DNA of 37,530 nucleotides from a virus (IMGVR_UViG_2663763220_000005); one strand, 5' to 3'; numbered from the stretch's first letter, positions 22,549 to 27,595 are shown. Program-made: numbers and translations. The notes: generated from the letters alone by a model not told the origin.

Positions 22549-22923
22549 TTATTCCGATCGCTGGAGTTGCTCATGATGATACAGAGCGAGAATCAGGTCA
22601 TAAGACCCTTGCCTGTCTTTGTAACCAGTTTTATCAACCAATTCAGCTTTACTGATTCCGGGTAAATCAAGAATCAGATTCGCAACTTCAATTGCCCTTT
22701 GGTACAACTTACCGCCTTTTTTCTCCCCATGCAGTGGTTTTACATTCTTCAGGTAACCGCTATCCGCCAGGGCGAGAAATGTTGCCCTTGGGCATATCTT
22801 CTTTCTTGACGATTCGCTTTCTGTAACCTCTGCGATAGCTGCATCCCATGCATCACGAGGAGTCATTGAGCTATCAGCCACCAAATGATAAGCGATTAAA
22901 GCAACGTGAGCGTATTGAGACAT
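22549..22923 (-). CDS. Hypothetical cargo protein (about 124 aa) downstream of Rz
   Basis: ORF of moderate GC with a start at the internal Met (MSQYAHVALIAYHLV...); I recognise no family. Confidence 0.45.
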   Translation of the reverse strand: MSQYAHVALIAYHLVADSSMTPRDAWDAAIAEVTESESSRKKICPRATFLALADSGYLKNVKPLHGEKKGGKLYQRAIEVANLILDLPGISKAELVDKTGYKDRQGSYDLILALYHHEQLQRSE

Positions 22924-22961
22924 AATGCATCCATATACAAAAATCTTATGATAAGACTTTT

Positions 22962-23417
22962 CTAATATGAACACTGTGATCTCACATATTCTTGCAGGCC
23001 ATTCAATTGGTTAGTTATGGTTTCGATGCGCTCTCTGAGAACGAAATAATCCCGTTGAGCGGTGTCAGTAAGTCTGGGGCTGGAAGCATCATCCACGCCG
23101 GAGGCGGCGGTGGTTTTATGCTTGTCCGGACAGACTGCTTTGACGTGCAGCCACTTACGACCAGCAGAAACATCAGCACGAAGACTTTCGATAGTCGCGT
23201 TAGCATCAGCAAGCTCCTTTGTGTATCTGGCGTCGAGTTCAGCTACATCATGTTGACGCTTCTGCATGTCAGCGATGATGGATGTGGCTTTGTCGCGCTG
23301 TTCTTTGTAGGTCATGGCGTTATCACGGTAATGATTAACAGCCCATGACAGGCAGACGATGATGCTGATAACCAGAGCGGAGATAATCGCGGTTACTCTA
23401 CTCATTGTTGCCCCCAC
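22962..23417 (-). CDS. Rz i-spanin
   Basis: 151 aa with an N-terminal TM segment and coiled-coil periplasmic domain; the Rz1 ORF is embedded in an alternative frame. Confidence 0.8.
23015..23212 (-). CDS. Rz1 o-spanin (outer-membrane lipoprotein embedded in Rz)
   Basis: 65 aa with signal peptide, lipobox VVSGC and a PPPPP stretch. Confidence 0.75.
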
Positions 23418-23899
23418 AAACAGACTTCACGCTCAATCTCACGGCGAGTCATCAGCCCTTTCCATTGCTTACCGCCAGCGTATGTCCAGCGCCGTAGCTG
23501 ATCACATGCGCCTTTGATATCGCCCTGGTTTATTTTGCGAAGAAGTGTCGATGTTCTGAAATTTCCAGCACCAACGTTGTAAACGAACGAGTAAAGAGCG
23601 CCGCGCGTTGTTTCCGGTATATCGACTTTGATGTACGGGTTAATTTGTCTGGCGACAGTGGCAAGGTCTTTATTCAGGAGGGCTTTGCATTCTGCTTCGG
23701 TATACGTTTTACCGAGCATAATGTCTTTTCCGGTATGCCCGTAACATACAGTCCATACACCAACGATATCTTTATATGGTATGTAGCTGACGCCTTCCAG
23801 ACCATCGTTACCACTTGGGCCAGTGATTAACACAGATGCTATAGCAATAGCCCCGCCACCAATAGCCGCAGCAACGGCTTTTCGTAATGATGGAGGCAT
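23402..23899 (-). CDS. SAR endolysin (lysozyme, phage 21 R-like)
   Basis: 165 aa; N-terminal signal-anchor-release segment ([18 protein letters not shown]) followed by a lysozyme domain. Confidence 0.85.
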
Positions 23900-24114
23900 T
23901 ATTCACCTCTCGCAGCCTTGCGCTTATCTTCTTTAATCTTGAAATAAAGGTTTGTCAGGTACGTCAGCAGGCCAAATACCAGGCTACCCAGCACACCTAT
24001 TGCTGCCCACTGTGAGGGCGTGACTTTATCGAGCAGCTGTAAAAACCAGTAGCCAGCACTGCCTGCGGAGGTGCCGTAGGCAATGCCCGTTGTTAACTTA
24101 TCCATAGATTTCAT
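23899..24114 (-). CDS. Pinholin (phage 21 S-like class II holin) with dual-start motif
   Basis: 71 aa, [26 protein letters not shown]... with two TM segments; Met1-Lys-Ser-Met4 dual start. Confidence 0.85.
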
Positions 24115-24302
24115 AGCCTCACCTCCGCAAATAACGGATGGTGTACACGGTTCGGAACGAAGAGGAAAGGTATAGAAGTTACATTAGCGTAAGGCTTGAA
24201 CATCTATTCAAAAAGAAAAACGCCAGCGATTATTCTGGCGTAGCTGAAAGCATCATACAATTATCAAATACGAAAATTACAAAATCATTAAAACGCATCA
24301 CG

Positions 24303-25043
24303 TTACATCATGTCTTTTTCTAAAAAAAATCTTGATGAATATTGATGGGGAGGAACACCAAAATATCTTCTGAAAACACTCACAAAATATGACGTGTTTT
24401 CATAACCGCATATCTCAGCAACTTTTCCAACAGAATATAAATTGTAGCTTAATAACCTTTCCGCCATCACCATTCGCTCTTCAAGAATTAACTTACTAAA
24501 TGATAAGCCTTCGTGCTTTAATTTTCTTTTTAACAGACTTTCACTCAGATACAGTCTTGAAGATATATCACAAAGTCTCCATGCTGCAGATATATCCGTG
24601 TGAATAATAGCCTTAACTTTACTTCCTAAACTATTAAGACATCCAAATAAAAAACTTTGCACTATTTTCTCTGAAGATAAGATAGCAAGACATGCAAGTG
24701 ATATTTGATTTCTAACAAAATCCACAGTTCTGCCATCACAATTCAAGCATGCAATCAAGTTCTTTAACAATGAAAAATCTTCACATTCCACCATCAAGTA
24801 TGCCGGATAAAACCTTCTTACAGAAAAAGGTGAGAGTGTGTTGCTTTTAAAGAAATCATTAACTGTTTTCTCTTCAACATCTACGATCATTACATGATCT
24901 ATATTTGATGAAAAAAAATCTTTTAAATTGTAATCAATGAGAACAGCACTTCCTTTTTTAAACAAAATATCTTCTTTACCAATTCGGACATCAAACGAGT
25001 TCAACACCAAAATGATAGAACATATGTATGGCATATTATCCAC
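24303..25043 (-). CDS. AraC-family transcriptional regulator (AppY/GadX-like)
   Basis: 246 aa, AT-rich; C-terminal HTH_AraC signature (KVAEICGYENTSYFVSVFRRYFGVPPHQY). Confidence 0.8.
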   Translation of the reverse strand: MDNMPYICSIILVLNSFDVRIGKEDILFKKGSAVLIDYNLKDFFSSNIDHVMIVDVEEKTVNDFFKSNTLSPFSVRRFYPAYLMVECEDFSLLKNLIACLNCDGRTVDFVRNQISLACLAILSSEKIVQSFLFGCLNSLGSKVKAIIHTDISAAWRLCDISSRLYLSESLLKRKLKHEGLSFSKLILEERMVMAERLLSYNLYSVGKVAEICGYENTSYFVSVFRRYFGVPPHQYSSRFFLEKDMM

Positions 25044-25385
25044 CTGATATCATTGGGGTTACACCAGGTAAGTATAGGTGGAAAATCAATATTCGCAAGT
25101 TCAACAATAAGGAAAATTTCATTGCATCACAAGTATAAAATTATGTATTTAACTCACAAAGACAAATTATTAAACCAATCTGTTATATTATATATAGCTG
25201 CGTGGAATCATAATATTATATATTTTGACTGGCATGTTTACCAACTTTAAGTTGCATCTCAATTGTTTCTTCAGCGTAAACAGAGTTTTTATACAAACTG
25301 ACACTCTGGGTATCATAGTGTAGTTTTTACGATTGTAAATATCCTGCATGCAGGAACTCATCCTTTTGGATGATATCGCATACAA

Positions 25386-26345
25386 TTAATTTACCATCAG
25401 TCTTAGAGCCAGTTCGTCCGGATAGGGATCGAAGTAATTCTGTGTAAGCAAGTAATCATTAGGATACTCACCCAGATAATGCTTCAGCAGAGTCAACGGC
25501 GCAAGAAGAGGTAATGTGCCAGAACGATAGTTAAGTATAACCTCGCTCAACTCTTTACGCTGGCGTGTACTTAAGTAGTTACTAAAATACCCCTGTATAT
25601 GCATCAGCACATTCGTGTGATTTTTACGTGATGCAGGTTTTCTGAGAATCGCCATCAGCTTATCACGATACACCTCAAAGTATGATTCAAGGTCCGCCCA
25701 CTCGTGTATTGCAGCCACAAATGGTCCCATATCTTTATAGCCTGCCTGACTATGCGCCAACAACTGAAGCTTATAACGACTATGAAAAGCTAATAACTCT
25801 CTTCTTGATAATTTCTCCTTGTAAAGGTGATTGAGCTCATGCAAAGCAAAAACTCTTTCAACAAAATTCTCACGAAGCACTGGATCATGTAATCGCCCAT
25901 CCTCTTCAACCGGTAGCCAGGAAAACTTTTCCATCAAAGTACTCGTAAATAGTCCCACTCCATCTTTACGACCTCGATTACCATTTTCATCATAGACACG
26001 CACGCGCTCCATGCCACAGCTGGGAGATTTAGCACAAACCACAAACCCCGATACATCCTTTAATTTGTCCATATAAGAACGACTAAACTCTGTCATTCTC
26101 TCTGTCACATCCTCATTCTGGTCGTGGCTGAAACACATCCGTATATTTCCTTGCGTCGAGCGCACAAGACGTAGAGCAGGACGCGGAACTGGCAGCCCTA
26201 TAGCCATTTCCGGACATACTGGTCTGAATGTTACCCATTCCACTAATTTGTCCATTAAAAAGTCAGCTCTTTTGTGACCACCATCAAAACGAACAGCAGA
26301 ACCGGCCAAACAACCGCTGATTCCAATCACAGGTTTTTTTATCAT
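25386..26345 (-). CDS. DUF523 (TudS-like putative Fe-S thiouracil desulfidase) - DUF1722 (YbgA-like) fusion protein
   Basis: 319 aa; N-terminal GISGCLAGSAVRFDGGHK cysteine motif of DUF523, C-terminal half resembling YbgA. Confidence 0.65.
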   Translation of the reverse strand: MIKKPVIGISGCLAGSAVRFDGGHKRADFLMDKLVEWVTFRPVCPEMAIGLPVPRPALRLVRSTQGNIRMCFSHDQNEDVTERMTEFSRSYMDKLKDVSGFVVCAKSPSCGMERVRVYDENGNRGRKDGVGLFTSTLMEKFSWLPVEEDGRLHDPVLRENFVERVFALHELNHLYKEKLSRRELLAFHSRYKLQLLAHSQAGYKDMGPFVAAIHEWADLESYFEVYRDKLMAILRKPASRKNHTNVLMHIQGYFSNYLSTRQRKELSEVILNYRSGTLPLLAPLTLLKHYLGEYPNDYLLTQNYFDPYPDELALRLMVN

Positions 26346-26537: not shown

Positions 26538-27062
26538 ATGAAGTTATGGCCTGTGTTGACTGGCATTGCACTCTCTTTCACTCTTATAGCATGTAAGGCC
26601 CCGACACCACCTAAAGGTGTGCAGCCGATTACAAATTTTGACGCCAACCGCTACCTCGGAAAATGGTATGAAATAGCTCGCCTCGAGAACCGGTTCGAAC
26701 GTGATCTGGAACAGGTCAGCGCTACTTATGGAAAACGGAACGACGGAGGGATTCGTGTACTTAACCGTGGATACGATCCAACGAAAAATAAATGGAGCGA
26801 GAGCGAAGGTAAAGCATACTTTACTGGAGATACTAAAACTGCAGCATTGAAGGTTTCGTTTTTTGGCCCCTTCTATGGTGGCTATAATGTAATCAAACTG
26901 GATGATGAGTATAAGTATGCTCTTGTCAGTGGTCCGAACAGAGAATACCTATGGATTCTGGCAAGGACCCCAACTATTCCAGATAAAGTAAAAGCAGACT
27001 ATGTGCGAACCGCTCAAAAGTTGGGATTCAATGTCAATGAATTATTATGGGTTAAACAATAA
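26538..27062 (+). CDS. blc: Bacterial lipocalin Blc (outer-membrane lipoprotein)
   Basis: 174 aa; signal peptide with lipobox LIAC and the lipocalin motifs NFDANRYLGKWYEIARLENRFE and YLWILARTP. Confidence 0.85.
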   Translation: MKLWPVLTGIALSFTLIACKAPTPPKGVQPITNFDANRYLGKWYEIARLENRFERDLEQVSATYGKRNDGGIRVLNRGYDPTKNKWSESEGKAYFTGDTKTAALKVSFFGPFYGGYNVIKLDDEYKYALVSGPNREYLWILARTPTIPDKVKADYVRTAQKLGFNVNELLWVKQ

Positions 27063-27090: not shown

Positions 27091-27117
27091 AAAAAAACCA
27101 GCCTTTGGGGAGGCTGG
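27091..27117 (-). terminator. Rho-independent terminator downstream of Q (tR'-like)
   Basis: Minus-strand CCAGCC-N8-GGCTGG hairpin followed by TTTTTTT, about 100 nt downstream of the Q stop. Confidence 0.6.
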
Positions 27118-27217
27118 CTAAATCAGGAAACAAGCTGTTATATGGTAATAACTACGTTGCGATTCCAACATTTAAAATGTTAGACTAATGACAATCAGAC
27201 AGCAACTTTTCCTTTAA

Positions 27218-27595
27218 TTATTTCGAACAATCAGCATCCATCTCCAATCGGAGATCCAACACCATCAGCATACCCTCCACTACGCCCTCAGCTTTCTGGA
27301 GCATCCTGCCAACCCAACAATCAGATCGCCCATGCTTACGTGCAAGCGCCATAAAAGTCATGCCGCCGACATAATAGTCCACCAATAAATCATGCAAATC
27401 GCTGTTGTTCTTTTTCAGACGGGCCATGCACCCGCAAATGATCATCGCGTCATCGTCACAACATTGTGGGCGAGATTTTACTTTTGAAGGAATTAATCCC
27501 TTAAAACCGGCGGCAATGGACGACCAGGTCACATCTTCATGATTATTAGCCGCCCACGCTCCCCAACGCTCAAGAACCATCTGAATATCACGCAT
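27218..27595 (-). CDS. Q: Late-gene antiterminator Q (QuuD-like)
   Basis: [34 protein letters not shown]... matches the DLP12 QuuD-type Q family as I recall it; GGAG RBS upstream of the ATG at 27595. Confidence 0.85.

Follow-up and report, generated by a model that had tools for sequence, protein, structure and literature searches.

A prophage-borne AraC/XylS regulator in the Q-to-lysis slot of a lambdoid prophage, a candidate activator of host acid resistance

Results

The regulator occupies a cargo slot between Q and the lysis genes

Nearly all of the window (the whole stretch of DNA that was analysed, 37,530 nt) consists of one lambdoid-type prophage that looks complete. Its genes are ordered on the minus strand from the early, replication and Nin-region genes through Q, the lysis genes and the terminase to the head genes and a contractile, Mu-like tail. 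The window is collinear, at 97–99.5% identity, with a prophage located beside the csc/dsdA/emrKY region of E. coli WP8-S18-ESBL-07 (NZ_AP022261.1). The tail region of this near-identical prophage carries an IS421 insertion, and its tail-sheath gene has an internal stop (L001 4605-5717 and 8501-9997, NZ_AP022261.1). In the window, by contrast, the tail-sheath ORF is intact (498 aa, 12442-13938) and the IS has no counterpart, so the window prophage may still be viable.

The cargo slot reads Q, blc (antisense), ybgA, araC and holin, and the holin gene starts 188 nt downstream of the regulator (Table 1). ORF calls, Pfam matches and comparison with RefSeq place the regulator in the Q-to-lysis slot of a lambdoid prophage, in agreement with the original prediction that it is prophage-encoded. 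That it lies between Q and the holin was also correct as to position, but this description was incomplete, as the lipocalin and YbgA-like genes sit between Q and the regulator. Related phages carry other cargo in the same slot, such as nmpC in DLP12 and stx in Stx phages, and some related phages are without the regulator. With its predicted promoter and terminator, its divergent GC content and a slot that is empty or otherwise filled in related phages, the gene has the properties of a moron. The Q-dependent late transcription unit is predicted to start upstream of the tR'-like terminator; given the position of this terminator, a Q-modified late transcript would cross the antisense lipocalin gene, the YbgA-like gene, the regulator gene with its terminator, and then the lysis genes.

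Table 1. Genes and predicted signals from Q to the holin gene, in window coordinates
Feature	Position	Strand	Evidence and remarks
Antiterminator Q	27218-27595	-	Pfam Phage_antitermQ, E 2.5e-51; RefSeq model
tR'-like terminator (predicted)	27096-27119	-	Scan; hairpin -14.9 kcal/mol; ~100 nt downstream of Q
Blc-type outer-membrane lipocalin (cargo, antisense to late transcript)	26538-27062	+	NCBIfam Blc, 314 bits (cut-off 267)
YbgA-like protein (cargo), DUF523 (2-thiouracil desulfurase-type) fused to DUF1722	25386-26345	-	Pfam
Distal promoter-like element TTTACA-16 nt-TATGAT (predicted)	25312-25339	-	Top scan match, 10/12; just past the ybgA-like stop
Proximal promoter-like element TTGCGA-16 nt-TATACT (predicted)	25071-25098	-	Consensus scan; -10 region reads CCTATACTTAC
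Shine-Dalgarno-like AGGTGG	25040-25045	-	Found in the window, ev203, 64% and 56% homologues; near-match in PatE
AraC/XylS regulator CDS, 243 aa	24303-25034	-	ORF, Pfam, PHROG 1450, RefSeq, AlphaFold2
Intrinsic-terminator-like hairpin ACGCCAG-loop-CTGGCGT + T run (predicted)	24210-24241	-	Scan; -11.3 kcal/mol; before the holin gene
Holin, phage 21 S type, first lysis-cassette gene	23899-24114	-	Pfam Phage_holin_2_1, E 2.2e-35

Further cargo is found elsewhere on the prophage. Beside the tail-fibre genes, a three-gene block of 31–40% GC (680-3482, plus strand) encodes a GtrA-type membrane protein (120 aa), a family-2 glycosyltransferase (306 aa) and a 506-aa ORF without a Pfam match. This layout matches that of O-antigen glucosylation (serotype-conversion) cassettes, and the block is likely a second conversion module. 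Directly after the Rz-type lysis gene, a DUF6979 ORF (22549-22974, minus strand; 141 aa, shorter in the RefSeq model; 42% GC; PHROG 5039, of unknown function) is probably another cargo gene. A 144-aa ORF in a patch of 38% GC (34551-34985, minus strand), with no match in Pfam or PADLOC, adjoins the S24-peptidase (LexA/CI-type) repressor gene (33464-34138), a spot typical of immunity-region cargo or exclusion genes.

The gene encodes an intact two-domain AraC/XylS protein

The minus-strand ORF at 24303-25043 is uninterrupted. Its product exceeds the Pfam gathering cut-offs for both HTH_18 (E 1.1e-14, 54.9 bits against 33.6; residues 161–237) and HTH_AraC (E 2.1e-11, 44.1 bits against 26.6), which argues that it is not a chance ORF. 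The same matches confirm the proposed AraC family and show the two-HTH domain of AraC/XylS members. The ORF as originally drawn is thus real and intact, but its start is likely the ATG at 25034 (243 aa) and not the GTG at 25043. This GTG (25043-25041) falls within the Shine-Dalgarno-like AGGTGG, and the ATG begins 5 nt past it. A start at the ATG agrees with the RefSeq model WP_001146308.1 and with the lengths of the homologues (237–247 aa), and it yields an N-terminus that fits M-x-x-(V/I/T)-C-S-(V/I), a motif common to PatE, GadW, AppY and YdeO. The gene is AT-rich, as had been noted, with 31.8% GC compared to 50.0% in the window and 55.6% in the structural genes.

The protein comprises an N-terminal regulatory domain (~residues 1–130) and a DNA-binding domain with two HTH motifs (~residues 136–235). 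The AlphaFold2 model (pLDDT 83) shows a small, beta-rich N-terminal domain followed by a seven-helix DNA-binding domain (residues 136–241). Its top full-length fold matches were CsvR and Rns of ETEC and ToxT of V. cholerae (E 1e-11 to 1e-8, TM 0.5–0.58), and the DNA-binding domain of GadX was superimposed with a TM of 0.85–0.90 of the target and 1.5–2.1 A rmsd. Rns, CsvR and ToxT, for which sequence matches reach 6e-18, differ from the regulator in that they are only 17–20% identical to it and target pilus and toxin genes; the N-terminal domain is weakly similar in sequence to that of ToxT (E ~1e-10) and has no match in Rns or CsvR.

The regulator belongs to a sister clade of PatE

Comparison with proteins of E. 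coli K-12 and O157:H7 Sakai identified ECs_0287, taken as PatE, as the closest characterised relative (53.6% identity over 235 aa). ECs_0287 was equated with Z0321 by position, since Sp1 (the equivalent of CP-933H) has no other AraC-type gene, and not by sequence. PsrA (ECs_1087, full frame) is 39% identical over its full length, GadW 33–34% and AppY and YdeO ~31–32% each over ~235 aa. The label AppY/GadX-like given in the original prediction stands but can be made more precise: the protein is of the GadW/YdeO/AppY type over its full length, but PatE and PsrA are closer, and the similarity to GadX (41%) is confined to the DNA-binding domain. Among the NCBIfam models the best match was YdeO (residues 4–239, E 7e-37), with scores that fall far short of the equivalog cut-offs of YdeO (127.3 vs 348 bits), GadX (85.5 vs 500) and HilD (86.8 vs 354). 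The regulator is a full-length relative of the GadW/YdeO/AppY-type regulators and the ortholog of none of them.

A distance tree and an identity matrix split a prophage group from the chromosomal regulators and resolved three clades within it. The first contains the window regulator, the Lambda_ev203 allele (83% identical) and a 64% relative; the second is the PatE clade (79–99% identity to PatE), and the third the PsrA/PsrB clade. At 52–54% identity to PatE, the window regulator is not a PatE ortholog, and the distance tree places it in a sister clade. It is a member of the prophage PatE/PsrA/PsrB group, being prophage-borne, homologous over its full length and monophyletic with this group relative to the chromosomal regulators. 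PHROGs assigns the full-length protein to family 1450 ("unknown function"), and our literature searches found no paper on this clade. A link to a defence system was considered and rejected, as PADLOC returned zero matches for the regulator, its YbgA-like and lipocalin neighbours and two nearby ORFs.

Conservation is unevenly distributed along the protein. Compared with PatE, the N-terminal domain is 38% identical and the DNA-binding domain 72%, and HTH1 shares 21 of 23 positions. Residue K169 of the regulator aligns with K170 of AppY, where the substitution K170E abolishes DNA binding, and the recognition helix that holds this lysine, S-E-S-L-(L/I)-K-x-(K/R)-L, hardly varies among the regulator, AppY, GadW, YdeO and GadX. 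In HTH2, which includes the second recognition helix, 9 of 25 positions differ from PatE, so the binding specificity may have shifted.

These relatives resemble the window regulator to different degrees. PatE (Z0321/ECs_0287 of CP-933H/Sp1 in EHEC O157:H7) is likewise prophage-borne, of similar size (247 vs 243 aa) and endowed with the same N-terminal motif, and members of its clade that are 84% identical to it also lie between Q and holin. PatE itself, however, is encoded at the end of a degraded prophage where the tail-fibre genes lie, and its activation of gadE/hdeA is experimental, whereas for the window regulator we infer it. PsrA and PsrB, encoded by effector-carrying lambdoid prophages of EHEC, are 39% identical to the window regulator over the full length and 56% in the DNA-binding domain. 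The psrA gene is also found downstream of Q in the late region, but it belongs to a more distant clade, and what comes next is tRNA genes and effector or stx loci instead of an immediately adjacent holin. Both proteins have been characterised: they activate gadE/yhiF and repress type III secretion (PMC10877973). AppY (DLP12), GadW, YdeO and GadX of K-12 share the two-domain layout and, except for GadX, the N-terminal motif; AppY, GadW and YdeO are 31–34% identical over the full length and, together with GadX, 41–47% in the DNA-binding domain, but their genomic settings differ. The early region of the window also contains an ORF (30801-31295, minus strand) with a PerC-family domain (E 7.7e-9), named "PerC family transcriptional regulator" in RefSeq; prophage Sp4 pairs PchA, of the PerC family, with PsrA, and the window likewise pairs a PerC-type with an AraC-type gene.

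Promoter- and terminator-like signals flank the gene

The spacer upstream of the regulator (342 bp, 31% GC) contains two promoter-like sites (Table 1). The TATACTT of the proximal -10 is at a fixed distance from the Shine-Dalgarno sequence in the window, in ev203, in the 64% and 56% homologues and in PatE, where both elements are arranged as in the window, and the ~100 nt before the ATG are nearly identical across three alleles. The context of this -10, CCTATACTTAC, resembles the sigma-S consensus (TCTATACTTAA), in keeping with the reported RpoS dependence of Z0321 and the reported rise of ECs0287 in early stationary phase. The -35-like hexamer of the proximal site (25093-25098, minus strand) reads TTGCGA in the window and TGGCGA in at least 74 of 80 related loci; this single G-to-T change brings it nearer to consensus and might lead to higher expression in the window strain.

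At the distal site, the block TTTACAATCGTAAAAACTnCACTATGATA is kept between the window and ev203 alleles, and the rest of the spacer has diverged. One contig with an 86% allele (L072, IMGVR_UViG_2925877141_000002) has an insertion of ~1.3 kb with a transposase-like frame in the ybgA-araC spacer, which parts the distal promoter-like site from the gene; two other copies of the same allele (L084 and L095) are without it. Over the whole region, the number of promoter-like sites showed no clear excess (14, vs 10.4 ± 2.6 in shuffled sequence).

Downstream, the stem of the predicted terminator is kept in three alleles, and a similar hairpin lies past the 56% homologue; no terminator hairpin was found past the 64% homologue. 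The 3'UTR (24242-24302, minus strand) is 96% identical between the window and ev203, though the flanking coding sequence is only ~87% identical. It folds no better than its shuffles (z = -0.34), and an Rfam search of the cassette, including the 3'UTR, gave no match at gathering score and only chance-level matches at E<=1. The idea that it encodes an sRNA was dropped because, in the 86% allele, only the terminator stem is retained and the rest of the 3'UTR has diverged; the 96% conservation is most likely due to recent recombination.

The regulator is separable from its cassette neighbours

The order Q, blc (antisense), ybgA, araC, holin was found in all 74 IMG/VR contigs with enough flanking sequence and in all 12 phage records (alleles at least 85% identical), which include alleles 13–17% apart in protein. 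Within this allele group, such invariant linkage to the lipocalin and YbgA-like genes would suit equally well a regulator that controls the YbgA-like gene and/or the Blc lipocalin, and possibly itself, and not host regulons. The numbers of genomes with araC (993), ybgA (1064) and the whole module (958) are similar, and control of adjacent genes is common among AraC-family regulators. Some regulators of the Rns/ToxT fold class moreover bind fatty acids, in a pocket between the N-terminal and DNA-binding domains where basic residues hold the carboxylate, and the lipocalin Blc binds lipids.

More distant homologues, however, are found in cargo slots without these neighbours. The 64% homologue directly follows an unrelated Q family. 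The 56% homologue, itself 84% identical to PatE, has yet another Q family on one side and holin immediately on the other. Both are without lipocalin or YbgA genes and without any further cargo; in the longer of these contigs, holin directly follows the homologue. On Sp4, psrA is located between Q and tRNAs, with the holin ~6.8 kb further on the opposite strand, past IS elements, and in an Stx2k phage a PsrA-like gene lies between Q and stx2. PatE and the mEp332 ortholog are placed after tail-fibre genes. These arrangements point to an independent cargo gene and weaken the idea of a local regulator. PatE, PsrA and AppY, with their other neighbours, were shown to act on host genes, and tight linkage would be expected in any case for a 3-kb block flanked by recombination-prone conserved genes. 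A shared operator was also sought: the repeat search across the cassette returned only short matches typical of AT-rich DNA, with no repeated operator-like motif common to the DNA upstream of araC and the spacer between the divergent blc and ybgA genes. We therefore regard purely local control as unlikely, although it comes first among the alternatives to action on host genes, before an induction-coupled phage role and a silent passenger.

The position of the gene raises the second of these alternatives, in which it would be expressed mainly in a Q-dependent manner, late in induction, to reprogramme the host or tune lysis and late functions, and would do little in the lysogen. The regulator is oriented like Q and the lysis genes, with the tR'-like terminator upstream of it and the holin as the gene that directly follows, and this one slot is used behind three different Q families. 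The position is that of stx, for which induction-coupled expression is described (PMC8065619). Against this, PatE-clade genes are also found outside late operons (past the tail-fibre genes in mEp332) and are nevertheless expressed in stationary phase, even from the degraded Sp1, which has no annotated Q or lysis genes. The regulator has its own conserved (predicted) -10, Shine-Dalgarno sequence and terminator, and AraC-type proteins are not known to be linked to lambdoid late-gene control. A role confined to the lytic phase consequently appears quite doubtful.

The gene is widespread and under purifying selection

Selection was estimated from the pair formed by the window and the ev203 allele (83% identical). 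The dN/dS of the regulator was 0.27 for the whole gene, 0.33 for the N-terminal domain and 0.15 for the DNA-binding domain, and values for Q, the lipocalin, YbgA-like, holin and lysozyme genes ranged from 0.06 to 0.11. The regulator is constrained yet evolves faster than its neighbours (2.4–4.6 times their dN/dS), mostly in its presumed sensor domain. As this N-terminal domain is also only 38% identical to that of PatE, the input signal may differ. Column-wise polymorphism over 80 viral loci was discarded as unreliable because of an IS insertion and edge effects, and hand-checked representative alignments were used.

The gene is present in 1034 of 5426 complete E. coli genomes (576 at 99% nucleotide identity or more, 432 at 80–90%), and the entire 3.7-kb module in 958. 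Its reading frame is intact in most of ~1000 genomes and also in viable phages. A relative is encoded by 254 IMG/VR contigs; the isolated, plaque-forming phage IdasGreatGrand carries the gene at 98.8% identity, and eleven phage records of the Lambda_ev/1H12 type carry it at 82%. Lambda_ev phages come from an infant-gut collection in which more than half of the lambdas carry blc cargo (PMC6969025). Names in protein collections refer to Escherichia and Shigella only. A scan of one genome per species with stringent patterns returned nothing beyond one contig of a MAG and an HTH of Clostridia that is unrelated to the regulator, which fits an accessory gene of Escherichia. The former is a 3.2-kb contig (L014, JARKOR010000151.1) binned as "Candidatus Nanosynbacter sp." that carries a 99%-identical copy of this E. 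coli phage regulator and is almost certainly misbinned in the MAG.

Might the gene nonetheless be a silent passenger, intact, H-NS-silenced and currently without a role? It is very AT-rich, bears a generic name in every database and exceeds its neighbours in dN/dS, and most prophage genes are described as silent in lysogens (PMC10057817). But dN/dS remains in the range of purifying selection, above all in the DNA-binding domain; most of the genomes, and viable phages as well, keep an intact frame, and conservation extends to the ribosome-binding site, the -10 element and the terminator. We consider this last alternative very improbable.

Discussion

We consider it probable that the regulator is a functional AraC/XylS activator of the PatE/PsrA/PsrB group, a self-contained piece of Q-lysis cargo that acts on gadE and hdeAB of the host. 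The computed features of the locus (an intact gene, its family, the conserved DNA-binding residues, promoter- and terminator-like signals of its own, and purifying selection) are joined by the experimental record of its relatives, from which activation of host acid resistance would be its most likely function. The original prediction had stated that prophage regulators of this class rewire acid-resistance and virulence regulons, and the literature on PatE, PsrA/PsrB and AppY bears this out, with effects on gadE/hdeA and, by indirect routes, on type III secretion, motility and biofilm formation. PatE and PsrB activate gadE/hdeA and acid resistance, and PsrA/B repress type III secretion via GadE (PMC10877973); AppY directly activates gadE and gadY. 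On the strength of these precedents, the description "candidate lysogenic-conversion regulator" is a fair one, with the host targets extrapolated from relatives that are only 31–54% identical.

In the lysogen, the regulator would be transcribed from its own AT-rich upstream region, which is probably H-NS-silenced and would be induced in stationary phase or under stress, as for the RpoS-dependent PatE. With both HTH motifs, the protein would bind AT-rich sites that coincide with the -35 of host promoters or lie upstream of it. Its most likely targets would be gadE and hdeAB of the GAD acid-fitness island, where it would presumably counteract silencing by H-NS. Acid resistance would then rise, and further effects would follow through GadE, among them repression of LEE/type III secretion where a strain carries the LEE.

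Because the gene also lies on the Q-antiterminated late transcript, a burst of regulator would be expected upon prophage induction. It is improbable, though worth stating, that this late-transcript position is itself functional, with the induction burst, on top of low-level expression in lysogens, driving a GadE-type stress programme in the induced host cells or controlling the lipocalin/YbgA cassette in response to a lipid ligand sensed by the Rns/ToxT-like N-terminal domain. If so, the induction state of the phage would feed into a host regulon.

The clade described here is new and uncharacterised, and its kind, prophage regulators of the acid-resistance network, is already known; the expected gain is incremental rather than conceptual, as it extends an established theme. 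The clade is nevertheless found in about one-fifth of complete E. coli genomes and rides on viable lambda-like phages, which are common in the infant gut. Should the regulator switch on gadE/hdeA like its relatives, few phage-borne factors that alter survival in gastric acid would be as widespread, and its reach would extend beyond EHEC to commensal and clinical E. coli; it could also account for some of the differences in acid resistance between strains.
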